Positions 8,058 to 60,279 of a stretch of 64,000 nt of DNA are shown in pieces. The first letter of the stretch is position 1; each line of letters begins with the position of its first letter. This stretch comes from Escherichia phage BF17. The position numbers were made by a program, and so were the translations under genes. The stretch lies in the sequence record MW822008.1; one strand, 5' to 3'. The notes under the pieces were generated by a model. That model had not been told where the DNA came from. It was given only the letters and a program-made list of their open reading frames with translations, and searched no databases.

Positions 8058-8088
8058 AGATTTTATCAAGACGACTAAGGAAAACAAA

Positions 8089-8301: not shown

Positions 8302-8314
8302 AAATATTATCACA

Positions 8315-8349: not shown

Positions 8350-8390
8350 AGATTTTATCAAGACAACATATTAATTTAAGGAATACAAAA

Positions 8391-8714: not shown

Positions 8715-8794
8715 TTAGCTTTACTTTATGCAGATACTTTGATATAGTGTCTGCATAGGGGAAAGAAATTAAATTAACTTAAGAGGATCGTATA

Positions 8795-9064: not shown

Positions 9065-9115
9065 TCAAAACATCGTTAGCGGTCGTTTAAGGCCGCTTAT
9101 ATTGGGGATTATACC

Positions 9116-9388: not shown

Positions 9389-9393
9389 TTAAT

Positions 9394-9603
9394 ATGCTTA
9401 CTGTACAGGATAAGATCGACATCTTAAAGGTTAATATGTATGTGATTGATGCCGTACCTGGTAAAGTATTTGCATACGATGATTCTAATCGCAGTCCTTT
9501 CTATTGTAGTCATGTAGTTGGATACGTGCCGTTGGCGTATGTTATCGAAAGAGTGGTTGATGCAGCATACAATCATTTTTTAGAAAATAATACTTGCAAT
9601 TAG
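9394..9603 (+). CDS. hypothetical protein (69 aa)
   Basis: ORF track; 5 nt after previous stop. Confidence 0.6.
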   Translation: MLTVQDKIDILKVNMYVIDAVPGKVFAYDDSNRSPFYCSHVVGYVPLAYVIERVVDAAYNHFLENNTCN

Positions 9604-9621
9604 TTTTTAAACGCGTATAAT
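9594..9621 (+). promoter_or_regulatory. sigma70 promoter with 5' stem-loop
   Basis: TTGCAA 9594-9599, TATAAT 9616-9621, hairpin GGGGAGAAatgaTTCTCCCC. Confidence 0.7.
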
Positions 9622-9672
9622 GTTTTACATGAAGGGGAGAAATGATTCTCCCCACTAATTAAGGAATATGAA

Positions 9673-9819
9673 ATGAAAGCATCAAAAAAGAGTAATACCA
9701 AGAAAGCATGTTCACCTTTCGCTGGGGTATTCCCTTTACGTTTCGTTGATGAAGTGGTTTCCTACCCGCTGGGCCTTACTCCTGAGATGGTAGAAAGTTT
9801 GCGTAAATCTAAAAAATAA
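9673..9819 (+). CDS. small basic protein (48 aa), below ORF-track cutoff
   Basis: hand-translated MKASKKSNTKKACSPFAGVFPLRFVDEVVSYPLGLTPEMVESLRKSKK; RBS AAGGAA. Confidence 0.55.
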   Translation: MKASKKSNTKKACSPFAGVFPLRFVDEVVSYPLGLTPEMVESLRKSKK

Positions 9820-9823
9820 TACT

Positions 9824-9850
9824 TGCAATTAGTTTTCAGTACTGTATAAT
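9824..9850 (+). promoter_or_regulatory. sigma70 promoter with 5' stem-loop
   Basis: TTGCAA 9824-9829, TATAAT 9845-9850. Confidence 0.7.
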
Positions 9851-9900
9851 AGTTTACATGAAGGGGAGAAATGATTCTCCCCAATAACAGGAGAAACAAA

Positions 9901-10053
9901 ATGAAACAATACAACGCTCGGTTTGATGTTACTATCGGCAACGGCAAAGGTCAATTCTCTTTCAGTACTCGCCGCAGTTATACAGAAAACTTCCTGCGAA
10001 ATTGTGCACTGACCGCCGCACAAATTAAACATTACTTCCAGGCTAAAAAATGA
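9901..10053 (+). CDS. hypothetical protein (50 aa)
   Basis: ATG 9901 with RBS CAGGAG; track start 9871 lies in leader. Confidence 0.6.
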   Translation: MKQYNARFDVTIGNGKGQFSFSTRRSYTENFLRNCALTAAQIKHYFQAKK

Positions 10054-10139
10054 AATCATTAGCTTATTACAGTTCGGCGGTGATCGGTGCATTGATCGCG
10101 GCATTGTTAGTAACCTATCTATTCTTTATGGTGATTTAA
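10050..10139 (+). CDS. tiny hydrophobic single-TM peptide (29 aa)
   Basis: ATGA overlap with upstream stop; MKSLAYYSSAVIGALIAALLVTYLFFMVI. Confidence 0.35.
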   Translation: MKSLAYYSSAVIGALIAALLVTYLFFMVI

Positions 10140-10259
10140 ATGAATCCTAACGGTTTAATTTACAGTACTACTAAAACGAAAGCAGATAAAGCGAAAGTAA
10201 AGGAGTACATTAAGCAAGGCATGACGCGAAAGGCGGCAGTACTGAAAGCTAAAAAATAA
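10140..10259 (+). CDS. small basic protein (39 aa)
   Basis: ATG adjacent to previous TAA; MNPNGLIYSTTKTKADKAKVKEYIKQGMTRKAAVLKAKK. Confidence 0.35.
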   Translation: MNPNGLIYSTTKTKADKAKVKEYIKQGMTRKAAVLKAKK

Positions 10260-10267
10260 ATGAAAAA

Positions 10268-10350
10268 AGTGGTTGACTTCGGTCAGCCATTTTGCTATTA
10301 TATATTCATTGAGAGATAGCTCACTAGCCCACCGGGTGCATAAGTGTATC
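10268..10350 (+). promoter_or_regulatory. Composite module: terminator-like hairpin overlapping promoter (TTGACT-17-TATTAT) plus conserved element GCCCACCGGGTGCATAAGTGTATC
   Basis: hairpin 10271-10288 with T-run; TTGACT 10273-10278; TATTAT 10296-10301; element 10327-10350. Confidence 0.55.
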
Positions 10351-10394
10351 TATTATATAAGTATTGAGTACTGAGAACTATTTTTAAAAAGTAC

Positions 10395-10422
10395 TTGCAA
10401 ACTATCTCAATTGGCGTATAAT
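10395..10422 (+). promoter_or_regulatory. sigma70 promoter with 5' stem-loop
   Basis: TTGCAA 10395-10400, TATAAT 10417-10422. Confidence 0.7.
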
Positions 10423-10473
10423 GTTTTACATCGAGAGGGGGAACGGTTTCCCCTGGTAATAAGGAAACGAATC

Positions 10474-10815
10474 ATGACTATCTCAATTGCTCAATCTAAC
10501 TTTGAAAATGAAATCATCGCCCAGGCACTGCGTTTAAATGATGGTCGGGCCGAAATTAATTACGGTTTCAATTCAGGCGGTTGTGAAAACTATCAGTACT
10601 TTGTAACTGCTGATGGCGGTGTCCTGGGCATCAATACCGTTATTGTAAACATTCAGAAAATTAATTTCAATGATCCAGACGATAGCCAGTTTTACATTGT
10701 AGGCGTAGACGTGAACTATGAGGATGACTCACTAACTGATGATCACACTGGCGAGAAGTTAGAAAGTGCATACGGTGAAGATGATTATCAGTCCGGTCCA
10801 GAAGATTTTGAATAA
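10474..10815 (+). CDS. hypothetical protein (113 aa), acidic C-terminus
   Basis: ATG 10474 with RBS AAGGAA. Confidence 0.75.
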   Translation: MTISIAQSNFENEIIAQALRLNDGRAEINYGFNSGGCENYQYFVTADGGVLGINTVIVNIQKINFNDPDDSQFYIVGVDVNYEDDSLTDDHTGEKLESAYGEDDYQSGPEDFE

Positions 10816-10828
10816 TATTAAAAAATAG

Positions 10829-10857
10829 TTTGACAATAGATTATAGTACTGTATAAT
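10829..10857 (+). promoter_or_regulatory. sigma70 promoter (TTGACA-17-TATAAT) with 5' stem-loop
   Basis: TTGACA 10829-10834, TATAAT 10852-10857. Confidence 0.7.
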
Positions 10858-10906
10858 AAGTTACATCAAGGGGAGAATAGTTCTCCCCACTAACAGAGAA
10901 AACAAA

Positions 10907-11119
10907 ATGGCTAATATCTGCACTGTACTGAAAAATGCAAAACAAGTTTTATTTTCTGACCACGATTATTTTAATAAAGATATTACAGGCGTTCGGAATA
11001 TCAAAGATGTAAAAAGTGTTATGGGTATCTATTGCAATATGAAACGTGTTGGAACGTTCGGCGACAAAGTACTATACCAGGCAGGGGATTACAATTTTAC
11101 ACTGACTATCATTAACTAA
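10907..11119 (+). CDS. hypothetical protein (70 aa)
   Basis: ORF track; RBS GAGAAAA. Confidence 0.7.
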   Translation: MANICTVLKNAKQVLFSDHDYFNKDITGVRNIKDVKSVMGIYCNMKRVGTFGDKVLYQAGDYNFTLTIIN

Positions 11120-11132
11120 AAATATTATCACA

Positions 11133-11167
11133 GTACTATTGACATAGTTTGATAGTACTGACATAAT
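11133..11167 (+). promoter_or_regulatory. Palindromic promoter cassette (copy 3)
   Basis: TTGACA 11139-11144, CATAAT 11162-11167, flanked by AGTACTAT / ATAGTACT. Confidence 0.7.
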
Positions 11168-11202
11168 AACTTTTATCAACTACACTACTAAGGAATTAAA
11201 AA

Positions 11203-11382
11203 ATGGCTATCATCGCAAAAACTGAAATCGTTGGTCTGGATTCTATCATCATGACGTTTGAAGATCAAAAAGGTATGTATGTAGTTTCATATGGTGATTA
11301 TGTTCGGGAGTATGAAACGGTAGACGAAGCCTTTGAAAGTTATATTCGCCAGGTGAATAAAGCATACGACGACTACCGCTAA
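11203..11382 (+). CDS. hypothetical protein (59 aa); paralog of 8089..8301
   Basis: hand-translated; RBS AAGGAA. Confidence 0.6.
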   Translation: MAIIAKTEIVGLDSIIMTFEDQKGMYVVSYGDYVREYETVDEAFESYIRQVNKAYDDYR

Positions 11383-11403
11383 AATATATTACCAGTACTA
11401 TTA

Positions 11404-11437
11404 AAGTTATTGACATAGTTTGATAGTACTGTATAAT
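11404..11437 (+). promoter_or_regulatory. Palindromic promoter cassette (copy 4)
   Basis: TTGACA 11410-11415, TATAAT 11432-11437. Confidence 0.7.
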
Positions 11438-11481
11438 AAGTTTTATAAACAGTAGTTAACTTAACCTAAGAGAGAAATAAA

Positions 11482-11625
11482 ATGATCGCACTGGATTCAT
11501 TCATCGACGCAGTACTGGCAAAAACTGGCGAGGATCTGACCGCAGAACAATACGCGATGATCGAGCAATGTCAGCAAAACGGTAAATCGGTGAAAGATAC
11601 TGTTAAGATTATCCGCAAGATGTAA
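11482..11625 (+). CDS. small protein (47 aa), below ORF-track cutoff
   Basis: hand-translated MIALDSFIDAVLAKTGEDLTAEQYAMIEQCQQNGKSVKDTVKIIRKM; RBS AGAGAAA. Confidence 0.55.
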   Translation: MIALDSFIDAVLAKTGEDLTAEQYAMIEQCQQNGKSVKDTVKIIRKM

Positions 11626-11631
11626 GATTAT

Positions 11632-11665
11632 AGCCCACTGGTTAACGCTGGTGGGCTTTAATCCT
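11632..11665 (+). terminator. Terminator-like hairpin containing a Chi octamer
   Basis: AGCCCAC...GTGGGCT stem; GCTGGTGG 11647-11654; weak T-run. Confidence 0.45.
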
Positions 11666-11730
11666 TTACCCTATACAATGTCAGTACTAAACCGTTTATC
11701 TCATTAGAATGCGTTACAGGACGTTTGACA

Positions 11731-11928
11731 ATGATTAGCATGAAATCAGTACAAAAACAAATAGAAACATTATCAAAAATTAAACGTAAACAGTACTCGT
11801 TAGAATATACAATCAATGGTAACTATCATCTAATGAAAGAGAATAATTTTATCGTCATTGATGAATCATTGCAAGTTATTAGTATAGTACTGAAAGCATT
11901 AATTAATGATAGAAAAAAATTAAAATAA
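11731..11928 (+). CDS. hypothetical protein (65 aa), AT-rich codon usage
   Basis: ATG 11731 (track start is TTG 11725); weak RBS; no promoter seen. Confidence 0.4.
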   Translation: MISMKSVQKQIETLSKIKRKQYSLEYTINGNYHLMKENNFIVIDESLQVISIVLKALINDRKKLK

Positions 11929-11932
11929 TCTA

Positions 11933-12013
11933 TTGACAATATCCTCCAGTACTGGCATAATACTTACATCAAGACGAGAACGTCACTAACCCATAGGGTG
12001 CACAAATGTAACT
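11933..12013 (+). promoter_or_regulatory. Promoter (TTGACA-17-CATAAT) plus conserved element ACCCATAGGGTGCACAAATGTAAC
   Basis: TTGACA 11933-11938, CATAAT 11956-11961, element 11988-12013. Confidence 0.55.
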
Positions 12014-12020
12014 GTATAAT

Positions 12021-12057
12021 ATTGATCAAAAAATGATCTGATCAATACTTGATCAAT
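12021..12057. promoter_or_regulatory. GATC cluster: 4 GATC sites in 31 bp, three as TGATCAA
   Basis: GATC at 12024, 12035, 12040, 12051 within the leader upstream of the TraR-like gene. Confidence 0.6.
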
Positions 12058-12259
12058 TTGCGTAAAGTAGTATAATTCTATGCAGTTGGTTAGACGAAAG
12101 GTTATGATTAGTAGTGCAAGTGTATAAAAATTTTCATGGTGTATCGTTCCGCACATATGGCAATGAATATGTGGTATCATGTGGATTGGAAAAAGTAAGA
12201 ACAAGTAATATTATTGTCGCATTACAGTACTATAGTATTTTTATAATGAGGTTAAAATA

Positions 12260-12517
12260 ATGGCTGTAGGATTCGCGAAAGATGGGGCCGAACAAGACGA
12301 GATTAACGCAGTGATTCAGGCCGCCGTTAACCACGCTAGAAAGCAAATTAACGCACAAATAGAATCACTGATACATTGCCTCGACTGCGGCGATATAATC
12401 CCTGAGAAACGACGCCAGGCCGTTAAGGGATGTAAGTACTGCATAACTTGCCAGGAGGATCATGATAGTACTTTTAAACGTCCCCCGCGTAATTGTTGGC
12501 ATAGATCTATGAGATAA
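12260..12517 (+). CDS. TraR/DksA-family C4 zinc-finger protein (85 aa)
   Basis: CLDCGDIIPEKRRQAVKGCKYCITCQ = C-x2-C-x13-C-x2-C-x2-C arrangement with IPE..RR typical of TraR; RBS GAGG. Confidence 0.75.
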   Translation: MAVGFAKDGAEQDEINAVIQAAVNHARKQINAQIESLIHCLDCGDIIPEKRRQAVKGCKYCITCQEDHDSTFKRPPRNCWHRSMR

Positions 12518-12523
12518 AAAGTA

Positions 12524-12552
12524 TTGACAGTACTATCCAGTAGTGTTATAGT
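12524..12552 (+). promoter_or_regulatory. sigma70 promoter (TTGACA-17-TATAGT) with 5' stem-loop
   Basis: TTGACA 12524-12529, TATAGT 12547-12552, hairpin AGGGGAAacatcTTCCCCT. Confidence 0.65.
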
Positions 12553-12598
12553 ACTTACATCAAGGGGAAACATCTTCCCCTACTAAGAGGAAATGAAA

Positions 12599-12787
12599 AT
12601 GGAAAACTTATCAAGTATTTTAGTACAAGATGATTTCGGTAATCCTGGAAGTGCTATCATTGTTCGGGGTAATAAAGCAACATTTGTTATTGCTGGTGGA
12701 CCTGTACAGCGTAGCATTAAAAACAATGCCGTTACTATTAATAATGTACGCTATCGCTTAGATAAAGAATTGATTCATAAACTGTAA
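12599..12787 (+). CDS. hypothetical protein (62 aa)
   Basis: ATG 12599 with RBS AGAGG (track start 12593 too close to RBS). Confidence 0.65.
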   Translation: MENLSSILVQDDFGNPGSAIIVRGNKATFVIAGGPVQRSIKNNAVTINNVRYRLDKELIHKL

Positions 12788-12814
12788 TATTAATTTAATA
12801 GAGGATAACAATAA

Positions 12815-13138
12815 ATGTACATTCATACTACTATCACAAAGGAAGTCCGTTGCCAGTTCGAAAGTATTCCGGGCGTATGTTTCATCACTGGTACGTTTTC
12901 CCCTGGTGATCGTGATAATCCAGTACTGTTACAATTACGCCATCCATCATGGGATAAAGCATTTGATCTACCGTTGAATGAATTCGCAACTACTGCTGAA
13001 AAGTACATTAAAAATATTCGCGAGAATGATCGACTATTCATTAATGCTTTCAGTGATTCCGCGTTAAGCGAGATCCACAGCGTATTGGTTGCAATCATGG
13101 AATCAATGGAGAAAACTAAATTCAAACAAGGTGAATAA
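12815..13138 (+). CDS. hypothetical protein (107 aa)
   Basis: ORF track; RBS AGAGGA. Confidence 0.7.
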   Translation: MYIHTTITKEVRCQFESIPGVCFITGTFSPGDRDNPVLLQLRHPSWDKAFDLPLNEFATTAEKYIKNIRENDRLFINAFSDSALSEIHSVLVAIMESMEKTKFKQGE

Positions 13139-13144
13139 AAACTA

Positions 13145-13172
13145 TTGACAAGATAATCTAGTACTGTATAAT
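13145..13172 (+). promoter_or_regulatory. sigma70 promoter (TTGACA-16-TATAAT) with 5' stem-loop
   Basis: TTGACA 13145-13150, TATAAT 13167-13172. Confidence 0.7.
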
Positions 13173-13221
13173 AAGTTACATGAAGGGGAGAAATGATTCT
13201 CCCCACTGAGAGGAAAGAAAA

Positions 13222-13434
13222 ATGCAAGGTCAACTAATCGTTCGTAAATGGTCTGATACTAACGCTAAACCGTGGGATGTACAATACATCGGACCGGATG
13301 GGGTATCACGTTATCAGCCTGGCGTAACGCATAGTACTGAGCAATATGCCGCCGCTCACCGCGAACGCCTGTTAGAATCCATGAAACAGGGATACGGTGA
13401 AAAATTCATTCAAGATCATTGGCTGAAAGATTAA
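13222..13434 (+). CDS. hypothetical protein (70 aa)
   Basis: ORF track; RBS GAGAGGAAA. Confidence 0.75.
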   Translation: MQGQLIVRKWSDTNAKPWDVQYIGPDGVSRYQPGVTHSTEQYAAAHRERLLESMKQGYGEKFIQDHWLKD

Positions 13435-13451
13435 TATAAGGAGTACAGCTT

Positions 13452-13544
13452 ATGCAAATGAATCCGATGATTATTGTGTTAGCTGTACTTATGATCATTC
13501 ATGCAATAGTAAAAGTATTAACGCAATCAGGAGTAATAAAATGA
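13452..13544 (+). CDS. tiny hydrophobic single-TM peptide (30 aa)
   Basis: RBS AAGGAG 13436-13441; MQMNPMIIVLAVLMIIHAIVKVLTQSGVIK. Confidence 0.4.
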   Translation: MQMNPMIIVLAVLMIIHAIVKVLTQSGVIK

Positions 13545-13714
13545 TTCAAGTAGAATTATCAGTACTGAAAGATCTGTTTTATCGGTTAGGTACTACTGGC
13601 GAGTATCCTAAAAGTGATACCGCAAAACTTTTTGTATCACTCGACTTATGGCAACGCGAACAATTAGTAATGTCCTGGCGTAAAGGTAAAGCAGATAGCG
13701 AGGTGAAAGCATGA
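13541..13714 (+). CDS. small protein (57 aa)
   Basis: ATGA overlap with upstream stop; RBS CAGGAG. Confidence 0.45.
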   Translation: MIQVELSVLKDLFYRLGTTGEYPKSDTAKLFVSLDLWQREQLVMSWRKGKADSEVKA

Positions 13715-13860
13715 AAGAATTCTTATTCGAAGTAGTGTTTCAAGGTGTCGGTAGTAACCAACTGATTCGCTCAAGTGGTTATAATGTTAACCAGGCATGG
13801 AATAACATTAAACAAATGTACCCGAACGCTATCACCTATCGCAACCCGAAAGAAGTTTAA
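13711..13860 (+). CDS. small protein (49 aa)
   Basis: ATGA overlap with upstream stop; RBS GAGG. Confidence 0.45.
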   Translation: MKEFLFEVVFQGVGSNQLIRSSGYNVNQAWNNIKQMYPNAITYRNPKEV

Positions 13861-13873
13861 AAATATTTGAAAA

Positions 13874-13952
13874 AGGGATTGACTCCGGTCAGTCCCTTTG
13901 CTATTATATACGCATAGAAACAAATCAGCCCACAGGGTGCATAAATGTATCT
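13874..13952 (+). promoter_or_regulatory. Composite module: bidirectional terminator-like hairpin overlapping promoter plus conserved element AGCCCACAGGGTGCATAAATGTATC
   Basis: hairpin GGGATTGACtccgGTCAGTCCC 13875-13896, TTGACT 13878-13883, element 13927-13952; Chi GCTGGTGG 13960-13967 just downstream. Confidence 0.55.
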
Positions 13953-13998
13953 ATTGTTTGCTGGTGGCTAGTACTGAAAACTATTTTTAAAAAAGTAC

Positions 13999-14026
13999 TT
14001 GCATTGTACTTAGAATCAAGTATAAT
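13999..14026 (+). promoter_or_regulatory. sigma70 promoter P1 (TTGCAT-16-TATAAT)
   Basis: TTGCAT 13999-14004, TATAAT 14021-14026. Confidence 0.65.
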
Positions 14027-14030
14027 GTTT

Positions 14031-14114
14031 TACATCAGGACGGGGAACGAAACAAGTAACCCCGTTAAGTAGTCCAGGAGTAAGACATAAGAAAACCTCC
14101 CCTGATAAAATAGT
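14031..14114 (+). ncRNA. Conserved structured leader / candidate small RNA (copy 2)
   Basis: about 85% identical to 3722-3806; stem CGGGG...CCCCG one base pair shorter on both arms. Confidence 0.4.
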
Positions 14115-14142
14115 TTGACAATAGAAAGTAAACGAGTATAAT
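14115..14142 (+). promoter_or_regulatory. sigma70 promoter P2 (TTGACA-16-TATAAT)
   Basis: TTGACA 14115-14120, TATAAT 14137-14142. Confidence 0.65.
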
Positions 14143-14175
14143 ACTTACATCAACCACTGATAAGGAAACATTAAA

Positions 14176-14451
14176 ATGCGGATTCTACTGACAGCTAACG
14201 AAATCGAACAAGTACTGACTACTAACCTGGAAGACTGGAAACGTGAAGCAGATATCCAGGCGGTTCAACTGCTTAACGATAAGTTAACGCCGGATGACTT
14301 AAGCAAGATTGTAGATCCTCAATTCTACGAAGATATCCACGACACCGCGTTAAGCGTCGAGGATGTACTAGATAAGCACTACATTGATATTGATTTGCAG
14401 GTTTACGGTCGTAAAAACTTTATCACTATTCACGACATTTATAATAATTAA
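14176..14451 (+). CDS. hypothetical acidic protein (91 aa)
   Basis: ORF track; RBS AAGGAAA. Confidence 0.75.
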   Translation: MRILLTANEIEQVLTTNLEDWKREADIQAVQLLNDKLTPDDLSKIVDPQFYEDIHDTALSVEDVLDKHYIDIDLQVYGRKNFITIHDIYNN

Positions 14452-14454
14452 GTA

Positions 14455-14482
14455 TTGACAAAGTATCTTAGTACTGTATAAT
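14455..14482 (+). promoter_or_regulatory. sigma70 promoter with 5' stem-loop
   Basis: TTGACA 14455-14460, TATAAT 14477-14482, hairpin GGGGGAAtggTTCCCCTCC. Confidence 0.7.
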
Positions 14483-14537
14483 AGTTTACATCGAGAGGGG
14501 GAATGGTTCCCCTCCTAACAAAGAGAGAGAAATAAAA

Positions 14538-14720
14538 ATGGCTAAATGCACTATCTGCAAGAAAGAAATAGTATTAGTTCCAAGTGCCCGTGAACGTGCC
14601 GCTCGGTTCGGTGGCAAAGCGTCAGACTATACAAAAATGTTTACTACCCATGCAGCTTGCCAGGTAGCAAAACGTTCACAAGAAAGCGTAGAATTAATGC
14701 GTAAACTTTCCAAAAAATAA
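14538..14720 (+). CDS. small Cys-containing basic protein (60 aa; CTIC...ACQ)
   Basis: ORF track; RBS AGAGAGAGAAA. Confidence 0.7.
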   Translation: MAKCTICKKEIVLVPSARERAARFGGKASDYTKMFTTHAACQVAKRSQESVELMRKLSKK

Positions 14721-14723
14721 GTA

Positions 14724-14751
14724 TTGACAAAGTATCTTAGTACTGTATAAT
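14724..14751 (+). promoter_or_regulatory. sigma70 promoter with 5' stem-loop
   Basis: TTGACA 14724-14729, TATAAT 14746-14751. Confidence 0.7.
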
Positions 14752-14808
14752 AGTTTACATCAAGTGAGGGGAAACGGTTCCCCTCCTAACAAAGAGAGAG
14801 AAATAAAA

Positions 14809-15132
14809 ATGGCTATGATCCTTGCCCAGAAAGTAGAACTGAAAATTGTAACCTCCTTTGACATTAAAGTTAATCGGTGGACTGATTCACACGGCAATAC
14901 TTACCACTCTTGCTACGTGTCCGCGTTAATTGGCGACCGCTGGGAAGACTTGGGACATGAAACCTTTACTTACGGTTACGGTACACAAGGAGAATACACG
15001 GGCTTGGAGATCATTAAAGAAACCGTTATAGGTTTCAACCCGAAAGAAAAAGTTATTCACCGCATCGAAAAAGAGATTAACAAAGAAATAACAGTTCGCT
15101 ACTACGATGTAAAACGTAAGAAAGACATGTAA
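14809..15132 (+). CDS. hypothetical protein (107 aa); paralog of 8391..8714
   Basis: ATG 14809; track start 14764 lies in leader. Confidence 0.75.
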   Translation: MAMILAQKVELKIVTSFDIKVNRWTDSHGNTYHSCYVSALIGDRWEDLGHETFTYGYGTQGEYTGLEIIKETVIGFNPKEKVIHRIEKEINKEITVRYYDVKRKKDM

Positions 15133-15146
15133 TAGAATCCATTTAA

Positions 15147-15183
15147 AGTACTATTTGACATTGCCCAGATAGTACTTTATAAT
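15147..15183 (+). promoter_or_regulatory. Promoter TTGACA-17-TATAAT enclosed by palindrome AAGTACTAT...ATAGTACTT
   Basis: TTGACA 15155-15160, TATAAT 15178-15183; same architecture as 2783-2819. Confidence 0.65.
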
Positions 15184-15227
15184 AGACTCTAACTTGTAGT
15201 ACTAACTCAACTAATAGGATGTATACC

Positions 15228-15623
15228 ATGATTACTAAATTCTACGCTACCCGTGAAGCTGCCCGTATTGTTGCACGCGAGGAAGGAGCAGCATTTAAAG
15301 ACATGGGCAAAGATGCACCGAAAGGTCAACGCTGGGCCGTACAGTTCAAAGAAATCTCTGATATTGTGAATTCACCTGAGCCAGTACTAACAGCAGCAGA
15401 ACTAAAACGAGCGGATTTACTGGCGGCAGTACTTAACGCACAAGATGAATTTATCGCTGATTCTGATATCAAAGTACAGACAAACCATACCGCTTGGACT
15501 CACGCGGATCACCTGGCAAACCTTAAGCGTCCAAGTGAACTGGTTCGCAACCAGAAAGAGATCCGACACGACCGTAAGGGTAATCGTGTAACAGTATACA
15601 GTAAACGCCGCCAGGTTATCTAA
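15228..15623 (+). CDS. hypothetical protein (131 aa); paralog of 2856..3122
   Basis: ATG 15228 with RBS AGGA 15215-15218. Confidence 0.75.
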   Translation: MITKFYATREAARIVAREEGAAFKDMGKDAPKGQRWAVQFKEISDIVNSPEPVLTAAELKRADLLAAVLNAQDEFIADSDIKVQTNHTAWTHADHLANLKRPSELVRNQKEIRHDRKGNRVTVYSKRRQVI

Positions 15624-15643
15624 TAACTTGCAGTACTAACAAC

Positions 15644-15671
15644 ACGGCGGGATCAGTTCCCGCCTTTTTTA
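15644..15671 (+). terminator. Rho-independent terminator
   Basis: hairpin GGCGGGatcagttCCCGCC then TTTTTT. Confidence 0.75.
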
Positions 15672-15685
15672 TAGGATAAACTAAA

Positions 15686-15940
15686 ATGATTAAGGTACAA
15701 CTATCTAAAGATAATATCTTGCGGGTACACTATAAAGCACCACAGAGAATCATCACAAAGGCCGTACAGCTTGCTAATGAGTTTATTAATGGTAACCTAT
15801 TACCAAGGAAGTTAAGCAACGGAAAACTGCGTGTAATCGATGTAGACACTAACAACAGAATAGTAATTGAGAACACAGGAAAGATAAACCTATATGAACA
15901 CCAACAATATAATAAGAAAATAAAACTAATATCACGTTGA
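15686..15940 (+). CDS. hypothetical basic protein (84 aa)
   Basis: ORF track; RBS AGGA. Confidence 0.65.
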   Translation: MIKVQLSKDNILRVHYKAPQRIITKAVQLANEFINGNLLPRKLSNGKLRVIDVDTNNRIVIENTGKINLYEHQQYNKKIKLISR

Positions 15941-15965
15941 CAGTACTCAATTGTTTTAGTATTAT
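15937..15965 (+). promoter_or_regulatory. sigma70 promoter (TTGACA-17-TATTAT); duplicated cassette with 16213-16241
   Basis: TTGACA 15937-15942, TATTAT 15960-15965; leader TACACATACCAACACGGG shared. Confidence 0.6.
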
Positions 15966-15993
15966 GTACACATACCAACACGGGAGAAACAAA

Positions 15994-16212
15994 ATGAAAT
16001 TATCTAAAATCGAAAAGAAAACTATTGATGAAGCAGTTAAGCACGGTTATACCTTTCGTAATGATTCACATTTTACCAATTTTCAACAAGGCCAAAGGAC
16101 TATTAAAAAACTAATTGACAAAGGTTTATTAGTTAAAGTAGATAACGGTAACGGCATTGAGTATCAGCCAACCCAAGACGCATTATCTTTAAAGAAATAT
16201 GCAATTATCTAA
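15994..16212 (+). CDS. hypothetical protein (72 aa)
   Basis: ATG 15994; track start 15937 is the TTG of the -35. Confidence 0.7.
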   Translation: MKLSKIEKKTIDEAVKHGYTFRNDSHFTNFQQGQRTIKKLIDKGLLVKVDNGNGIEYQPTQDALSLKKYAII

Positions 16213-16241
16213 TTGACAGTACTCAAATGTTTTAGTACTAT
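16213..16241 (+). promoter_or_regulatory. sigma70 promoter (TTGACA-17-TACTAT)
   Basis: TTGACA 16213-16218, TACTAT 16236-16241. Confidence 0.6.
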
Positions 16242-16269
16242 ATGTACATACCAACACGGGGAAAACAAA

Positions 16270-16512
16270 ATGATTACTTTAGAAAAACGTATCAAAGAAA
16301 CTACATCGCTGGTGGAACTGTTAACAGTACTGAAATGCCGTACTACTCGGTTTAGTACACCGGACTTTATTAATATGGTTGATGTTAACGGTCGTTATCG
16401 CATTGCAGTAGAACATGGAACAGCGAAAGTATTCAGTACTAAAAACACTAAGGAAGTGATTCACGCGGTTAGTGTGAAAAAAGTGGTTGCCATTGATAGT
16501 AAAGTACTGTAA
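16270..16512 (+). CDS. hypothetical protein (80 aa)
   Basis: ATG 16270, RBS GGGGAAAA. Confidence 0.7.
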   Translation: MITLEKRIKETTSLVELLTVLKCRTTRFSTPDFINMVDVNGRYRIAVEHGTAKVFSTKNTKEVIHAVSVKKVVAIDSKVL

Positions 16513-16543
16513 GATAGTTTCATTAACTCAAGGAGAACATGCA

Positions 16544-17128
16544 ATGCGTAATTATACTAAATTCATCCGTACCCTGTCAGAAATGGAAACCAACAAAGAG
16601 ATCCTTTCAGCTTGTCGGTTAGCTGGTCTGGAGATCATCGGTGCGGGTTCTTCCCGTATTGTATTCGCTTTAAATGATCGGTTAGTGATTAAGGTCGCCA
16701 ATTGTGATGCGGGTGTAGAACAAAATGAAACTGAATGTAAGGTATGGAATTTTTTAGACTATGACCGCCCTCAATTGAAACAGTACTTTGCAAAGGTGCA
16801 TATGCATTTATGCGATCCTGATAATATGTTTATCGTTATGGATCGGTTGAGTACTGCAAGCAAAGGCAGTGTAAAGCACGTTAACGCGTGCAACGAATTA
16901 AAGTACAATATTAAACGTAATGCCATTGAACGCCAGCACCGCTTTGCTGATGCACTACAACACGTCGATGATACATTATCAACACTAACGATAAGAGATA
17001 TCAGAAAACAGAATATCGGCCAGGATCGTAATGGACTTATTAAAGTACTTGATTACGGTTTAACCCGCAATATCTGGAATCAGTACTATAAAAAGCGTGA
17101 TGTGGCAGCAAGTAAAGTAACACGATAA
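16544..17128 (+). CDS. putative small atypical protein kinase (194 aa) with Hanks-like catalytic motifs
   Basis: IIGAGSSRIVF (Gly-rich loop), VIKV (Lys), IRDIRKQNIG (cf. HRDxKxxN), VLDYGL (cf. DFG); ATG 16544 with RBS AAGGAG. Confidence 0.55.
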   Translation: MRNYTKFIRTLSEMETNKEILSACRLAGLEIIGAGSSRIVFALNDRLVIKVANCDAGVEQNETECKVWNFLDYDRPQLKQYFAKVHMHLCDPDNMFIVMDRLSTASKGSVKHVNACNELKYNIKRNAIERQHRFADALQHVDDTLSTLTIRDIRKQNIGQDRNGLIKVLDYGLTRNIWNQYYKKRDVAASKVTR

Positions 17129-17141
17129 AAAAGATTAAAAA

Positions 17142-17225
17142 AGGGATTGATTTCGGTCAGTCCCTTTGCTATTATATATTCATTGAGAGATAGCTCACTG
17201 ACCCACAGGGTGCATAAATGTATCT
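17142..17225 (+). promoter_or_regulatory. Composite module: terminator-like hairpin overlapping promoter plus conserved element ACCCACAGGGTGCATAAATGTATC
   Basis: hairpin GGGATTGAtttcgGTCAGTCCC 17143-17165; element 17201-17225. Confidence 0.55.
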
Positions 17226-17268
17226 ATTATATAAGTATTCAGTACTGAAAACTATTTTTAAAAAGTAC

Positions 17269-17296
17269 TTGCATTGTACTTAGAATCAAGTATAAT
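17269..17296 (+). promoter_or_regulatory. sigma70 promoter with 5' stem-loop
   Basis: TTGCAT 17269-17274, TATAAT 17291-17296. Confidence 0.7.
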
Positions 17297-17351
17297 GTTT
17301 TATATCGAGAGGGGGGGAACGGTTCTCCCTCAAAGAATAAGGAATAAAATC

Positions 17352-17573
17352 ATGACTACAATGACTTGCATTTACGCTTCCAATCTTCTGAATGATGCGG
17401 CCTTTAATGTTGATTCAGAATATCAATGTTATCGGGATGAAAATAAAAAAGTTTTTGTAGTTGATAATAATGGTTTCCATATTGAAATACAATCCGGCTT
17501 CACTGGTGTTGATGGTAAATCAGTATGGGGCGTACAGGATGATAACGGTACATATCATTTTAAACGTAATTAA
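17352..17573 (+). CDS. hypothetical protein (73 aa)
   Basis: ATG 17352, RBS AAGGAA. Confidence 0.75.
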   Translation: MTTMTCIYASNLLNDAAFNVDSEYQCYRDENKKVFVVDNNGFHIEIQSGFTGVDGKSVWGVQDDNGTYHFKRN

Positions 17574-17576
17574 GTA

Positions 17577-17604
17577 TTGACAAAGTATCTTAGTACTGTA
17601 TAAT
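17577..17604 (+). promoter_or_regulatory. sigma70 promoter with 5' stem-loop
   Basis: TTGACA 17577-17582, TATAAT 17599-17604. Confidence 0.7.
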
Positions 17605-17657
17605 AGTTTACATCAAGGGGAGAATAGTTCTCCCCGATACTAAAAGGAAACAAAATT

Positions 17658-17930
17658 ATGTCCAGCTACTCCGCTACTATGATCATTAAAGATATGAACG
17701 GTAATCCTACTTCCGCTGGTGGATCATTTGGAAACATTAATTTAGATGGTCGGTTATCCATGCAATCAGCCATCGATGCAGCGAAAGAAGTTTTTAAGAA
17801 TGAATGCACTGTAAGCAAGCTGGATTATATGGGATTCGCTATCGAGAAAACTAATCGTTTTGTGAACTACAAAAATCCACTGATGATTGATACTAACCTG
17901 AAAGCTAACGAAGTGGAATACTTATTATGA
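17658..17930 (+). CDS. hypothetical protein (90 aa)
   Basis: ORF track; RBS AAGGAAA. Confidence 0.75.
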   Translation: MSSYSATMIIKDMNGNPTSAGGSFGNINLDGRLSMQSAIDAAKEVFKNECTVSKLDYMGFAIEKTNRFVNYKNPLMIDTNLKANEVEYLL

Positions 17931-18118
17931 CAGTTGAAGAAGTTAAAAAAGTACTGGCAGTACTACGCTATCATAATCATTGCAAGGTGAAGAATGATCC
18001 TGATTATGTTGATTCATCCCTGGAGGAAGACACATTAAACGCAATAAGCCATATGCAAACATTAGCAAAGCGTATGACCGAAAAGAATAGACCGGACTAT
18101 ATCGGAAATAAAATTTAA
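17927..18118 (+). CDS. hypothetical protein (63 aa)
   Basis: ATGA start/stop overlap with 17658 gene. Confidence 0.6.
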   Translation: MTVEEVKKVLAVLRYHNHCKVKNDPDYVDSSLEEDTLNAISHMQTLAKRMTEKNRPDYIGNKI

Positions 18119-18125
18119 AAAGTAC

Positions 18126-18153
18126 TTGCATTGTAGTTAGATTAACGTATAAT
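18126..18153 (+). promoter_or_regulatory. sigma70 promoter with 5' stem-loop
   Basis: TTGCAT 18126-18131, TATAAT 18148-18153, hairpin GCGGGGGAAtagtTCTCCCGCC. Confidence 0.7.
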
Positions 18154-18204
18154 GTTTTACATAGAGCGGGGGAATAGTTCTCCCGCCAGTCCAGGAGATA
18201 CACC

Positions 18205-18468
18205 ATGAACACTATCGAAATCACTATCAATGCACACGTATACGACAACGTAGTACTGCAAACTACTATGACCGCTAACGATACCAGTACTTTGCGGAAT
18301 ACTGTTATTAGTGCCGTATGTGCCGCTATCGGTGATGTCGCCCTGGAAAATGCAAAACACGTAAACGATGGTTTCACTATGTGCAAACGTGATAACGCAA
18401 AACATATCATCGTGGAAGGTTACGGCGGTGTAGAATTTAATGTTTATATGAAAAAAGTACTTGCATAA
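18205..18468 (+). CDS. hypothetical protein (87 aa)
   Basis: ORF track; RBS CAGGAG; 3' end overlaps next promoter -35. Confidence 0.7.
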   Translation: MNTIEITINAHVYDNVVLQTTMTANDTSTLRNTVISAVCAAIGDVALENAKHVNDGFTMCKRDNAKHIIVEGYGGVEFNVYMKKVLA

Positions 18469-18488
18469 TAACTAAAACAAAGTATAAT
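18461..18488 (+). promoter_or_regulatory. sigma70 promoter with 5' stem-loop
   Basis: TTGCAT 18461-18466, TATAAT 18483-18488. Confidence 0.7.
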
Positions 18489-18535
18489 GTTTTGCATAGG
18501 GGGAGATGTCCTCCCCCACTAAAAGGAGTAATAAA

Positions 18536-18760
18536 ATGGCTAACTTTGATGAACTGATGCGGGAAGTAGCTAACCTGGCAGAAGAGAAAAAATCATTCGA
18601 TTCTATCTATAACACCTCTTACCGTGATTCAGTACTGGCATGTAACCAGGATCAAAAAGATGAACTAATCGCCACCTATCATGAAGCATGGAAGTACTAC
18701 CGACAATGGGAGAAAGAAGAAAGAGAGTCTACCATTGACGGCCTCAATAATCTAATCTAA
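18536..18760 (+). CDS. hypothetical protein (75 aa)
   Basis: ATG 18536, RBS AAAGGAG. Confidence 0.75.
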   Translation: MANFDELMREVANLAEEKKSFDSIYNTSYRDSVLACNQDQKDELIATYHEAWKYYRQWEKEERESTIDGLNNLI

Positions 18761-18773
18761 AAGTTTTATTTCA

Positions 18774-18808
18774 GTACTATTGACATAGCTTGATAGTACT
18801 GATGTAAT
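18774..18808 (+). promoter_or_regulatory. Palindromic promoter cassette (copy 5, diverged -10)
   Basis: AGTACTAT-TGACATAGCTTG-ATAGTACT; TTGACA 18780-18785. Confidence 0.6.
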
Positions 18809-18836
18809 AACTTTACTAACTACAAGGGGAAACATC

Positions 18837-19094
18837 ATGGAACAATTCACACAATATCGGGTAAATCCTCAAGCTATGGCCTACGTAGAAGACCATAAAA
18901 CGTTACCAGTACTGCAACCAGTTAAAGGCCATATCTATCGTGCAATGTCGTGGAGTACGGCCCAGGATGGCTATAAAACCGTAGCCGTTGGTATGTACTG
19001 CGGTAATGGTGAATGGTTTGATCCAAATAATCCGGTAGCCATTGACAGTACTGAAAAAATGAAATGGGCCGACTACATCGAAGATATTTCATAA
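18837..19094 (+). CDS. hypothetical protein (85 aa)
   Basis: ORF track; RBS AAGGGGAAA. Confidence 0.7.
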   Translation: MEQFTQYRVNPQAMAYVEDHKTLPVLQPVKGHIYRAMSWSTAQDGYKTVAVGMYCGNGEWFDPNNPVAIDSTEKMKWADYIEDIS

Positions 19095-19107
19095 AAAGAA
19101 TAAAAAA

Positions 19108-19187
19108 AAGGAGTTGACTTCGGTCCGCTCCTTTAGTACTATATACGCATAGAAACAAATCAGCCCACAGGGTGCATAAGTGTATCC
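19108..19187 (+). promoter_or_regulatory. Composite module: terminator-like hairpin overlapping promoter plus conserved element AGCCCACAGGGTGCATAAGTGTATC
   Basis: hairpin about 19109-19133; element 19162-19187; Chi GCTGGTGG 19222-19229 downstream. Confidence 0.55.
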
Positions 19188-19254
19188 AAAATATATAGTT
19201 AATAACGGTGAGTAACTATCTGCTGGTGGAACTAAAACTATTAATAAAAAAGTA

Positions 19255-19283
19255 TTGACAAAGTATATCAGTACTGCAATAAT
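19255..19283 (+). promoter_or_regulatory. sigma70-like promoter (TTGACA-17-AATAAT)
   Basis: TTGACA 19255-19260; GC-rich leader hairpin. Confidence 0.55.
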
Positions 19284-19336
19284 GTATCTCGTAGGGCGGC
19301 AATGGTGCGACGGCCCACAAAGTTAGGAGATTCAAA

Positions 19337-19669
19337 ATGAGTACTTCAATCGCTATCGTTAAAGCTTTCATCCGTACCAATGTTTCATCTGTATTCATCG
19401 ACGGTCTGGATCGGGAAGTAGAATACTCAATCATTATCGCACAGACTGCAAACGGTGCTCGGTATATCCTTAATGATAGTGAAGCAAATCACTACTACTT
19501 CACTAAAGCTACTGGCTTTAAACGCATCGATGCTGATGTAGTATACGCTAAGATGAATAAGCTGGTAGACAAGATTAACGCTAAAGGTACTATAGATTTA
19601 CAGTACTGGACCGAAACCGATCCAGAATATGGATCTCACCGCTACCTGAATCCAGGTATTAAAATGTAA
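19337..19669 (+). CDS. hypothetical protein (110 aa)
   Basis: ORF track; RBS AGGAG. Confidence 0.75.
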   Translation: MSTSIAIVKAFIRTNVSSVFIDGLDREVEYSIIIAQTANGARYILNDSEANHYYFTKATGFKRIDADVVYAKMNKLVDKINAKGTIDLQYWTETDPEYGSHRYLNPGIKM

Positions 19670-19676
19670 AAAGTAC

Positions 19677-58742: not shown

Positions 58743-59597
58743 ATGAAACTTTATCTAATCGTTGACTACAATAAGGATTATGCTGGTAACTTCACCGAAG
58801 ATTCGGATGGATATTGCACATCGACTAATGTCAATGTACGTAGCAGTAGTGCTCATGAACATGAATCTTGTAAAAATCTAAAAGATTTTATCGCATACCG
58901 AGCATTTGAAAAGAACTTCTGCCGCAGTAGATATTCGAAGTTTGAGTACCCGTTAATTGATGTTCCTGATGATTTAATGTTCCAGTTAATGCTAACTGGA
59001 GTTCAAGATTATGATTACATAGCATATAATCATATTACTAAGAAAATTTATATTGGTACATCATCACATGACACTTCTATGTATGCATCATGCCCAGATG
59101 ATCGAATGAATGATAGAAAATCATACTATAGTGGATCAGTTGGTTTAAATGATTCATTAAATGAAAATTTATTCTTTGAGTATGTTTATGATTACCATCA
59201 TGAGAAAAAAGAACGTGAAGATTACTGTATAGCAATTGATAGTACTAATGGGTATGAAGACGTGAAAGAAGCACTTATGCCGTACATTATTGAAAAGTAC
59301 TACAAAGATTTTCAGTACTGTAGTAATTTTCTAATCAGAAATTCTATTATAATCGGTCGCCAATCTAGTGCATACTCTCAGTACTATAATGATTCACCAG
59401 TAGCATCGGCAAATGAAATGTGTGATATTTTACAAATTCCACGTGAAGATATGGCATTCATTTTTACATCTTTTATTGAAGATGATGAGTTGTATATTAA
59501 AAATAAACACCGTTTCATGCCAAGCAAGATTGAGGTTATTCGAAGTTTTAGTGTTGATATACTAACAAATTTCACAGAAAAAACCGAATATAACTGA
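58743..59597 (+). CDS. hypothetical protein (284 aa)
   Basis: ATG 58743 with RBS GGAG; track start 58710 lies in terminator. Confidence 0.7.
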   Translation: MKLYLIVDYNKDYAGNFTEDSDGYCTSTNVNVRSSSAHEHESCKNLKDFIAYRAFEKNFCRSRYSKFEYPLIDVPDDLMFQLMLTGVQDYDYIAYNHITKKIYIGTSSHDTSMYASCPDDRMNDRKSYYSGSVGLNDSLNENLFFEYVYDYHHEKKEREDYCIAIDSTNGYEDVKEALMPYIIEKYYKDFQYCSNFLIRNSIIIGRQSSAYSQYYNDSPVASANEMCDILQIPREDMAFIFTSFIEDDELYIKNKHRFMPSKIEVIRSFSVDILTNFTEKTEYN

Positions 59598-59625
59598 GAC
59601 AAATGATAAGTTAATGATATAATAT

Positions 59626-59661
59626 AAGGTGACAACATAATATGTTAGTCACCTTTTTTTA
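59626..59661 (+). terminator. Rho-independent terminator
   Basis: hairpin AGGTGACaacataatatgttAGTCACCT then TTTTTTT. Confidence 0.75.
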
Positions 59662-60200
59662 ATCCTGAAAGGTTCCCATAAGGAAATGATTAAAAGCCTA
59701 ATCCACTCGAAAATGTAGAGGGTAGATGAGTAGTCCTTTCAGTACGAACAGCAGATGAAACCCGTTAGATGATGGCATAGTTTGAACCACTCACGGCAAT
59801 GCGGCTGTATAAAGAACTCCAATAGGATAAAGAGAGTTCCTCGATAGACATATAAGGATCGCACCTTACCAATTATCTAAGGGAGATTTCATAAGAAATA
59901 TGCGGTCGGAATTATACAATATAGTTGCGTCCAAATTTTGTGAAATCAAATACAAGTACTGGTCATATGGTATTTGTATTATGTGTCGGGATGTTTAAGA
60001 CCGACGACCGTTGCTACAAGAACCGCGATAGAGAGAAACAGAGCAACCCGCTTTCGTCTCGTAAGAGAATTCGTGATATGAACTATGTGAAGGCCACCAG
60101 CGTCAAACTTTTTTGTTCTTTCCCCTGCGGGGGGGATGAAATATGCTCAAGCAAACCCCGTCAATATTAATTAAAAGAAAATAGTACTTGTAGAATTAGA
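59662..60200. other. ORF-poor, relatively GC-rich intergenic region; candidate structured RNA or replication/recombination site
   Basis: no ORF with RBS; long-range complementary segments (GACGACCGTTGC / GCAACCCGCTTTCGTC); CCACCAGC 60094-60101; CCCCTGCGGGGGGG hairpin. Confidence 0.35.
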
Positions 60201-60279
60201 CATGCGTAGCATGGTAATTCTACTGATGTTGATGAAATCAACGTCACGTATATTCATTGATGTTTCCATAGGAATAATG

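Follow-up and report, generated by a model that had tools for sequence, protein, structure and literature searches.

The locus and its source

The DNA analyzed here, referred to as the window, is a stretch of 64,000 nucleotides (nt) from Escherichia phage BF17 (MW822008.1), and the element under study lies at positions 59655-60205, equivalent to 192802-193351 of phage 121Q, an unannotated gap separating 121Q genes 415 and 416. This gap almost certainly holds the gene of a large structured RNA of a new family, read on the plus strand from about 59630 or 59648 to about 60175 and yielding an RNA of about 520 nt. Identity over about 1.1 kb round the gap amounts to 99.5-99.6% with vB_EcoM_CRJP21, 121Q and SHEFM2K and to about 95% with PBECO4, and the window phage is, to judge by its sequence, an Escherichia jumbo phage of the 121Q/PBECO4 group (Asteriusvirus, Rak2-like). 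The gap alone keeps 96-99.8% identity in most other Asteriusviruses and about 88-90% in the most distant ones, and the gap plus its flanks about 87% in Asteriusviruses such as Ecwhy_1; measured by identity, the gap is better conserved than the flanking genes.

The original prediction, made from the letters of the window, had described a region poor in open reading frames (ORFs) and richer in guanine plus cytosine (G+C), lying downstream of a strong terminator and containing a G-rich hairpin, and this description holds. The single ORF of more than 40 amino acids (aa) inside the gap is an 81-aa ORF with a TTG start at 59925-60170; G+C over 59661-60175 is 40.8%, against 34.2% for the whole window and about 30% for the flanking genes; the upstream hairpin AGGTGAC...GTCACCT occupies 59627-59654 and is followed by seven T residues at 59654-59660; and the G-rich hairpin, CCCCTGCGGGGGGG, lies at 60122-60135. 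The four copies of the element in 121Q are similarly enriched (39.8-41.4% G+C vs 34.1% genome-wide). The features of the window copy (copy A), with P denoting helices and PK pseudoknots, are the following:

59596..59623, plus strand: promoter of the RNA gene, with -35 GAGACA (59596-601), 16-nt spacer and extended -10 TGaTATAAT (59615-23) (TGATATAAT)
59627..59660, plus strand: terminator hairpin of the upstream gene (AGGTGAC...GTCACCT plus T7), here between promoter and RNA
59655..60172, plus strand: conserved RNA body, matched by the nhmmer family profile (E=1.7e-115), sole copy in the window
59665..59745, plus strand: 5' domain with P1, P2, P3 and PKa (helices 1-5 of the curated structure)
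59665-72/59735-42, plus strand: P1, with compensatory changes (11 of 12 pairs for P1 and P2 together)
59673-76/59682-85, plus strand: hairpin P2, with compensatory changes counted together with P1
59704-08/59718-22, plus strand: hairpin P3 of the 5' domain, with the conserved loop GAAAAUGUA
59730-32/59743-45, plus strand: pseudoknot PKa, 100% paired, two of three pairs covarying
59748-52/59804-08, plus strand: P4, enclosing P5, 100% paired, three covarying pairs
59762-65/59793-96, plus strand: P5, 100% paired, three covarying pairs
59799-801/59849-51, plus strand: pseudoknot PKb (AUG/CAU), 100% paired, joining the P4 domain to the P7/P8 region
59814..59839, plus strand: hairpin P7 (GAACUC/GAGUUC), 91.9% paired, compensatory changes in 6 of 6 pairs
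59853-57/59864-68, plus strand: hairpin P8, 95-100% canonical in the E-INS-i alignment
59879-84, plus strand: AAGGGA core, invariant in 60 aligned copies, inside the conserved block UAAGGGAG (59878-85)
59885-89/59943-47, plus strand: P9, covarying in 5 of 5 pairs, closing a variable insertion
59949..60082, plus strand: 3' core with P10-P15 and PKc (helices 13-19 of the curated structure)
59949-60/59969-80, plus strand: hairpin P10, whose loop (59962-68) forms PKc
59962-68/60076-82, plus strand: PKc, a 7-bp H-type pseudoknot, 98.1% paired, covarying in 7 of 7 pairs
59984-88/60002-06, plus strand: P11 of the 3' core
60010-14/60043-47, plus strand: P12, 100% paired, crossing P13 and P14 and counted as a pseudoknot
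60024-28/60071-75, plus strand: P13
60031-35/60051-55, plus strand: P14
60058-60/60065-67, plus strand: P15, with a GUAA loop
60089..60106, plus strand: hairpin P16, weak in the window copy, 82.8% paired, holding the reverse Chi (60094-60101)
60119..60136, plus strand: P17, the C-run/G-run hairpin, conserved in all copies
60156..60164, plus strand: 3' tail motif CCCCGUCAA, a second copy of the P16 3'-arm motif

Evidence for a conserved fold

Helices were derived from 64 non-redundant copies of the element as stacked column pairs that remain complementary while changing, and the curated structure was tested by pair counting on an independent MAFFT alignment (A1) of 60 copies, with 500 partner shuffles and register slides as controls. 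The structure comprises 102 pairs in 21 helices, four of which are pseudoknots (PKa, PKb, PKc and P12). Canonical pairing reaches 91.8% of cells (73.7% when shuffled, 37-42% when slid), compensatory cells number 1050 (281 and 115-189, respectively) and the covariation score is 0.501 (0.176 and 0.06-0.10); changes on both sides are seen in 75 of the 102 pairs, and on each of the five measures all 500 shuffles fell short of the observed value. Base pairs are kept by compensatory substitution beyond the level of both controls, as expected of a structured RNA, and each pseudoknot is supported individually in the 60-copy test. RNAalifold, run blind on the 3' core with a divergent clade included, recovered P10, P13, P14 and P15, with compensatory changes in 22 of 28 pairs, and a covariance model of the 3' core (R1) applied to the window matched 59946-60108 with 128.3 bits (E=6e-29). 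In paired columns, G-U or U-G cells outnumber A-C or C-A cells by 477 to 85, which identifies the plus strand as the folding strand; this excess, taken with the conserved promoter, points to RNA.

The ORF at 59925-60170 is confined to the window copy and was rejected as coding: the homologous stretch carries stop codons in all three frames in each of the 59 other members, and its length there often differs by other than a multiple of three. No reading frame is conserved across the family, in keeping with a structured RNA. Annotated genes overlie the element elsewhere, namely 121Q gene 516 (247799-247954, minus strand) and small "hypothetical protein" calls in SHEFM2K, E9.1, JP4, WPEC3/5 and others, all of which are probably spurious.

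The suggestion of a structured non-coding RNA is thereby borne out by covariation over 60 homologues, the G-U excess, the promoter and the lack of a conserved ORF. The long-range complementary segments noted at the same time lie far above chance among homologues, for example in P1 and in the pseudoknot 59962-68/60076-82, and the signal of this copy taken alone does not rise above chance. The minimum free energy of the 515-nt sequence, compared with dinucleotide shuffles, gave insignificant z-scores of -0.86 (plus strand) and -0.24 (minus strand), and thus no excess stability. The original prediction had treated the lack of a transcript, a missing Rfam match and shuffle-like folding energy together as grounds for giving up the RNA; the latter two were found here, and as a rule they mislead, giving a false negative, because the RNA is real by comparison.

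What the comparison demonstrates, at the level of predicted structure, is a plus-strand transcript of at least 17 helices joined by four pseudoknots, with many invariant unpaired nucleotides, produced from what appears to be a dedicated transcription unit whose large RNA is under strong selection for a complex three-dimensional fold.

Architecture of the RNA

Structurally, the P4 domain (59748..59808) encloses, in addition to P5, a variable insertion and the invariant block CACGGCAAUGCGGC. The CAU arm of PKb is part of a further invariant block, GAUAGACAUAU, and the pairs of this pseudoknot change in step: G-C becomes A-U in 15 sequences and U-A becomes C-G in 3. The canonical share of P8 drops to 65% in the MAFFT alignment because loop lengths are misaligned there. 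The insertion closed by P9 contains an optional hairpin module (UACAAUAUAG...CGUCC). This module, about 30 nt long (UACAAUAUAGAUCCGUCCAAAAUU) and at 59900-59935 within P9 of the window copy, is also found inserted within P15 in family members L026, L060, L133 and others; that copies of the RNA can carry it at either of two places, or lack it, suggests that the structural module is transposable.

The 3' core blocks GACCGUUGC and GAUAGAGAGAAAC..ACCCGCUUUCG are mostly invariant. The strands of the core follow the order P12 5', P13 5', P14 5', P12 3', P14 3', P15 hairpin and P13 3', an order unlike the P3/P7 arrangement of group I introns and the nested double pseudoknot of the hepatitis delta virus (HDV) type.

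Downstream of the core, P16 shows compensation in L059 (GUCGAU/AUCGAC) and in the divergent clade (UUCG/CGAA), and its 3' arm plus the next bases reads GCGUCAA in the window copy. P17 displays one-sided C-G to U-G changes only, which gives no compensatory evidence. The P16 arm and the tail motif form direct repeats (60100-60106 and 60158-60164; A1 columns ~696-703 and ~806-815) that vary in concert across the family (CGUCAG, CGUCAA, UGUCAG, CGACAA, CGAAG), and in 37 of 40 sequences the tail would be as good a partner for the P16 5' arm as the adjacent arm is. This duplicated CGUCAG/CGUCAA motif may reflect an alternative fold, contact between RNA molecules or a dimeric binding site.

The reverse-orientation Chi of the original prediction is present within P16 (CCACCAGC, 60094-60101) and is judged incidental because the paralogues do not conserve it; as a functional part of the element it was rejected, over-represented though Chi is elsewhere in the window. 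In total, the window contains 11 occurrences of Chi (GCTGGTGG) against 0.42 expected, eight of them on the plus strand within 7396-19229, and an inverted Chi pair at 585/597 resembles the two arms of a hairpin.

Promoters and terminators

The window promoter, GAGACA-16-TGaTATAAT, scores 10 of 12 in a promoter scan, with the TG extension, and aligns with the GGGACA/GGAACA-N16-17-TGnTATAAT sequence conserved 5' of other copies, its ATAAT columns being invariant in 19 copies. This predicted promoter is of the host sigma70 type with an extended -10, and every copy inspected carries one.

The terminator of the upstream gene was not detected at 59627-59660 by a simple terminator scanner with a loop limit of 3-8 nt, presumably because its loop is longer than that limit. 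This loop contains an alternative -10, CATAAT (59636-41), and the corresponding promoter ATGATA-16-CATAAT scores 9 of 12. Transcripts of copy A that begin about 7 nt past TATAAT (59623) would contain most of the hairpin and could stop at its T-run; starts from CATAAT would fall inside the 3' arm of the hairpin and would therefore escape termination. In the other copies inspected, any visible upstream terminator lies 5' of the promoter, and the window copy alone differs.

Paralogues and distribution

In 121Q, four dispersed copies are found, all on the plus strand and each in an unannotated gap, and they share near-identical blocks separated by variable insertions:

90.3 kb, plus strand: copy after a sigma-factor gene
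192.8 kb, plus strand: counterpart of window copy A, in an unannotated gap
247.5 kb, plus strand: copy in an unannotated gap
326.7 kb, plus strand: copy between two minus-strand genes

A candidate fifth 121Q copy at 277089-277251, matched by the covariance model with 19 bits, was rejected as a probable chance match: it covers the end of a coding gene, a terminator and a promoter and has almost no family motifs. Within the 64-kb window, neither blastn, nhmmer nor the covariance model found a second copy. All 70 Rak2-like phage records have 4 or 5 matching places (280 in all), and at about 70% identity the element is still alignable in jumbo phages of Salmonella, Klebsiella, Yersinia, Erwinia, Serratia, Cronobacter, Pectobacterium and Xanthomonas.

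Pattern scanning of public collections located 46 loci among viral contigs, 70 among metagenomes and 8 among bacterial genomes; the plasmid collection gave no match, and among sequenced non-jumbo phages the element occurs in none. Full-length bacterial homologues with their own promoter are found in chromosomes or contigs of Serratia fonticola, Serratia sp., Silvania hatchlandensis, Enterobacter chinensis, Buttiauxella, unnamed Enterobacteriaceae and two E. coli strains, inside a small integrative element in every case examined. Two layouts recur: in the first, the RNA is flanked on one side by an integrase (large serine or tyrosine recombinase), read in the same direction, and on the other by a CI-like S24 repressor, with which it is convergent; in the second, it lies beside ParB/RepB-like genes at the edge of the element. 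A divergent clade in phage contigs of 41-44% G+C keeps the 3' core and has a remodelled 5' domain; in at least one of its members (L084), the RNA adjoins baseplate-hub and portal genes, as does 121Q copy B.

Among the bacterial and 121Q loci inspected, no shared protein partner was found; the proteins of the prophage lineage have no match in 121Q, and L060 and the E. coli islands have different neighbours. The enterobacterial elements include one lineage composed of integrase, RNA, CI-like repressor, Cro-like helix-turn-helix protein and a conserved 286-aa protein (L055, L057, L058, L062, L069, L072, L080, L085, L089, L127 and L128), the last of which has no Pfam or PHROG match. In E. coli LR-29-1 (L133; NZ_AP027515.1, 3470142-3488515), the island adjoins ffs and holds the RNA in a 1.4-kb unannotated gap, together with an IS3-disrupted integrase and genes for DUF4326, DUF488 and a dual-OB-domain protein.

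Relation to known RNAs

The 4227 covariance models of Rfam 15 were scanned both at the gathering threshold and at E<=10. At the gathering threshold, the 64-kb window gave no match and the eight bacterial loci gave unrelated matches only (TPP riboswitch, STnc450); at E<=10, the region and 12 further loci gave scattered, inconsistent small-RNA matches, mostly outside the element, and none to the GOLLD and ROOL models. ARAGORN found no transfer RNA (tRNA) or transfer-messenger RNA (tmRNA) in the window. The element resembles group I introns, ribonuclease P (RNase P) RNA and tmRNA in its size, multiple pseudoknots and conserved junction nucleotides, and differs from them in the absence of an Rfam match, of a tmRNA call by ARAGORN and of a surrounding gene. 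A group I intron was rejected: Intron_gpI (RF00028) gave no match at E<=10, and the element is intergenic with its own promoter, so that it is not inside a gene and has no exons. Resemblances considered by eye, namely to a mimic of the 16S 3' end or Shine-Dalgarno sequence, boxA, the 11-nt tetraloop receptor, the conserved regions of RNase P and an HDV-like fold, were dropped because none holds across the family.

ROOL and GOLLD are large ornate RNAs, frequent in prophages and phages, that form RNA-only homo-oligomers (PMC12286853, PMC5737381). The present family shares with them the 500-800-nt size class, many helices and pseudoknots, conserved unpaired bases, the absence of an associated protein gene and occurrence in phages and prophages; its co-varying CGUCAG motif could, speculatively, mediate intermolecular pairing. 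In contrast to ROOL and GOLLD, which come from Firmicutes and from rumen and lake samples, it belongs to Enterobacterales and their jumbo phages, has no tRNA-gene association and occurs as 4-5 diverged paralogues per genome, and there is no match in sequence or structure.

In the related jumbo phage PA5oct, four non-coding RNAs (ncRNAs) of 236-619 nt have been defined by RNA-seq, two of them very abundant (PMC7318152). They resemble the present family as unannotated non-coding transcripts of a related phage clade, and at least one of them, ncRNA004 (L134 517-1135), also combines a sigma70-like promoter (TTGACA...TAAACT) with a hairpin rich in C and G close to the 3' end. No homology to ncRNA001-004 was detected with nhmmer --max at E<=10 (L027, L134, L135) or with R1 at E<=10; homology was rejected, and the likeness is one of analogy only.

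The element is not described in the literature searched: it goes unmentioned in papers on phAPEC6, CBB and other relatives, full-text searches that paired jumbo phages with structured RNA, pseudoknots, ribozymes or ncRNA returned no description, and no transcriptome of a phage bearing the family was found.

Proposed function and alternative explanations

That the element is an RNA gene is nearly beyond doubt; whether its product acts in trans rather than in cis is, from the sequence evidence, evenly balanced. The combined reading, a gene for a large structured RNA of a new family that acts in trans, is the one we favour, with moderate confidence. Judging from the promoter, unmodified host RNA polymerase would transcribe the RNA early in infection and constitutively in lysogens. 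The folded RNA would then work in trans, either by serving a conserved factor of the host or phage as scaffold or decoy, or as a ribozyme or self-assembling particle, and would not be the leader of a downstream gene; the duplicated CGUCAG motif of the P16 arm and 3' tail may serve alternative or intermolecular pairing. Independence from neighbouring genes is argued by the orientations of copy B and the prophage copies, by separate downstream promoters and by the lack of a common downstream gene. The lack of a linked protein gene in mobile elements of very different kinds suggests that the partner is a conserved host component or is supplied by the jumbo phage, or that the RNA acts alone. An RNA acting alone would, by analogy, resemble ROOL and GOLLD (PMC12286853).

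Several observations weigh against a stand-alone, trans-acting RNA. The upstream terminator lies between promoter and RNA in the window, so expression of copy A may need the -10 in the loop or read-through, and both the expression and the RNA ends of family members are deduced solely from the promoter. About 60% of the copies have a terminator-like hairpin with a U-run 5' of conserved 3' elements, which a simple stand-alone RNA does not readily explain; copies A and C are without this internal terminator. The copy number of strictly 4 or 5, genome-wide dispersal, common orientation and deep synteny form a pattern expected of a cis element, and they fit redundant trans-acting genes less well. 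Finally, the single-sequence folding energy is no better than that of shuffles.

A more specific and distinctly tentative version of the trans-acting reading, which we consider rather unlikely, is that the family represents a new catalytic or self-assembling RNA class of Enterobacterales mobile elements. The core with its four pseudoknots would then be the active site or assembly unit, and the CGUCAG arm and tail would exchange strands between molecules, possibly among the 4-5 paralogues. During jumbo-phage takeover, the particle would target a conserved process of the host, and integrative islands would have captured the RNA to exploit or block jumbo phages.

The main rival to a trans-acting RNA, improbable in our estimate, is a cis-acting origin of replication, in which each copy is an origin whose transcript is a structured primer RNA. 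P17 and the A/T-rich tail would form a persistent R-loop, processing by phage RNase H would prime the leading strand in the manner of ColE1 RNA II or T4 origin transcripts, and the island copies would be origin mimics for the replisome of an infecting phage. In a T4-like phage, an origin primed by a promoter-driven transcript is the natural candidate for a position-dependent element; T4 itself replicates from several origins whose activity depends on early or middle promoters. Consistent with this model, each 350-kb genome has four or five dispersed, co-oriented copies of stable number and synteny (at 90, 193, 247 and 327 kb in 121Q), the RNA has an early sigma70-type promoter, the conserved G-run near its 3' end is followed by A/T-rich DNA, the phage has genes for RNase H and for a T4-like replisome, and the element-bearing islands have no conserved protein partner; a replication site had also been raised in the original prediction. 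The likeness to ColE1 RNA II and T4 origin transcripts extends to a structured RNA of about 0.5 kb made by host RNA polymerase from a sigma70-type promoter, to a G-run that might anchor an RNA-DNA hybrid and to several copies per T4-like genome. However, an RNA that over 500 nt keeps dozens of unpaired bases invariant and forms four pseudoknots goes far beyond the needs of known primers, the tertiary architecture being far more elaborate and better conserved than theirs. No antisense regulator is seen for the present family, and no homology to ColE1 RNA II or T4 origin transcripts was found, a comparison made without a family model. GC skew does not change at the four 121Q loci and follows gene orientation, a test of little power in T4-like phages; the alignments showed neither iterons nor tandem repeats, though no dedicated repeat search was made; and the prophage copies lie between integrase and repressor genes, not adjoining a replication gene.

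A cis-regulatory leader, acting by antitermination in the manner of HK022 put or as a giant riboswitch that controls read-through of the internal hairpin, is quite unlikely. It would account for the position of the element directly behind a promoter, for the roughly 60% of copies with a hairpin and U-run followed by further conserved sequence, for the absence of a convincing promoter before the gene next to copy A (the AGTACTTG site there has a poor -10) and for the four 121Q copies all pointing the same way as large downstream plus-strand gene blocks. HK022 put and lambda nut likewise lie directly 3' of an early promoter, with terminators after them. Against a leader, 121Q copy B lies between two minus-strand genes and precedes two opposite-strand genes, and the prophage copies are convergent with the repressor gene, an orientation that separates them from put and nut; in several orthologue groups the RNA and the next gene are separated by a good sigma70 promoter (TTGACT-N17-TACAAT); the internal terminator is missing from copies A and C; the downstream genes vary between copies and have no common function; and put comprises about 70 nt and two stem-loops, compared with about 520 nt here.

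A site acting at the DNA level (recombination, packaging or protein binding), or a structure of single-stranded DNA, is very unlikely. The element is multi-copy, dispersed and conserved, carries a Chi sequence in the window copy and lies near integrases in bacteria, but the compensatory changes keep pairing and not sequence, the asymmetry of G-U over A-C indicates one folding strand and the conserved promoter the transcription of that strand, Chi is not conserved in the paralogues, and in most prophage loci the integrase separates the element from host genes, so that it is not at an attachment boundary. The chance of a protein-coding gene or pseudogene, either the 81-aa ORF present in the window copy or a decayed gene, is negligible: in addition to the stops and length differences given above, the ORF has a TTG start and, by the inspection made for the original prediction, no ribosome-binding site, and the substitution pattern is that of paired RNA helices.

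A separate early-promoter class in the window

One part of the original prediction, a promoter-like site following the element, concerns a different class of signals. The site is present, but its -10 is poor and it belongs to a separate phage promoter class:

60183..60190, plus strand: AGTACTTG, the -35/UP half of a repeated early-promoter class, outside the RNA, with a poor -10 (CATGGT)

Against an expectation of 2.4, the window contains 38 occurrences of AGTACTTG, most of them on the plus strand, and the class consensus is AAAAAGTACTTGCAA-N17-GTATAAT. Some 17 strong promoters, nearly identical to one another and built as AAAAAGTACTTGCAA-N17-GTATAATGTTTTACATC, lie within 1669-19672, for example at 1669, 2129, 2446, 3125, 3684, 4487, 7464, 10390, 13994, 17264, 18121 and 19672, and this class differs from the promoter of the RNA family. 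Several tandem AGTACTTG promoters fall in a stretch of about 2 kb (window ~2047-4014, 121Q 135194-137161) that is without an annotated 121Q gene.

Significance

The element represents a new family of large structured RNAs, absent from Rfam 15 and from the literature searched, and in at least 70 deposited genomes it is unannotated or covered by spurious "hypothetical protein" genes. New bacterial or phage RNA classes that combine a length of about 500 nt with ribozyme-grade architecture are rarely found, and most of those already described (OLE, GOLLD, ROOL, raiA) have no known biochemical function. For screening, the family is a cautionary case, as the single-sequence folding z-score and the Rfam scan both fail on it. 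Since it is present in cultivable E. coli phages (121Q, PBECO4, phAPEC6 and others) and in E. coli and Serratia chromosomes, it is genetically tractable. Its universal presence in the jumbo-phage clade, as 4-5 stable paralogues, implies an important role, which may lie in host takeover, replication initiation or conflict between mobile elements.

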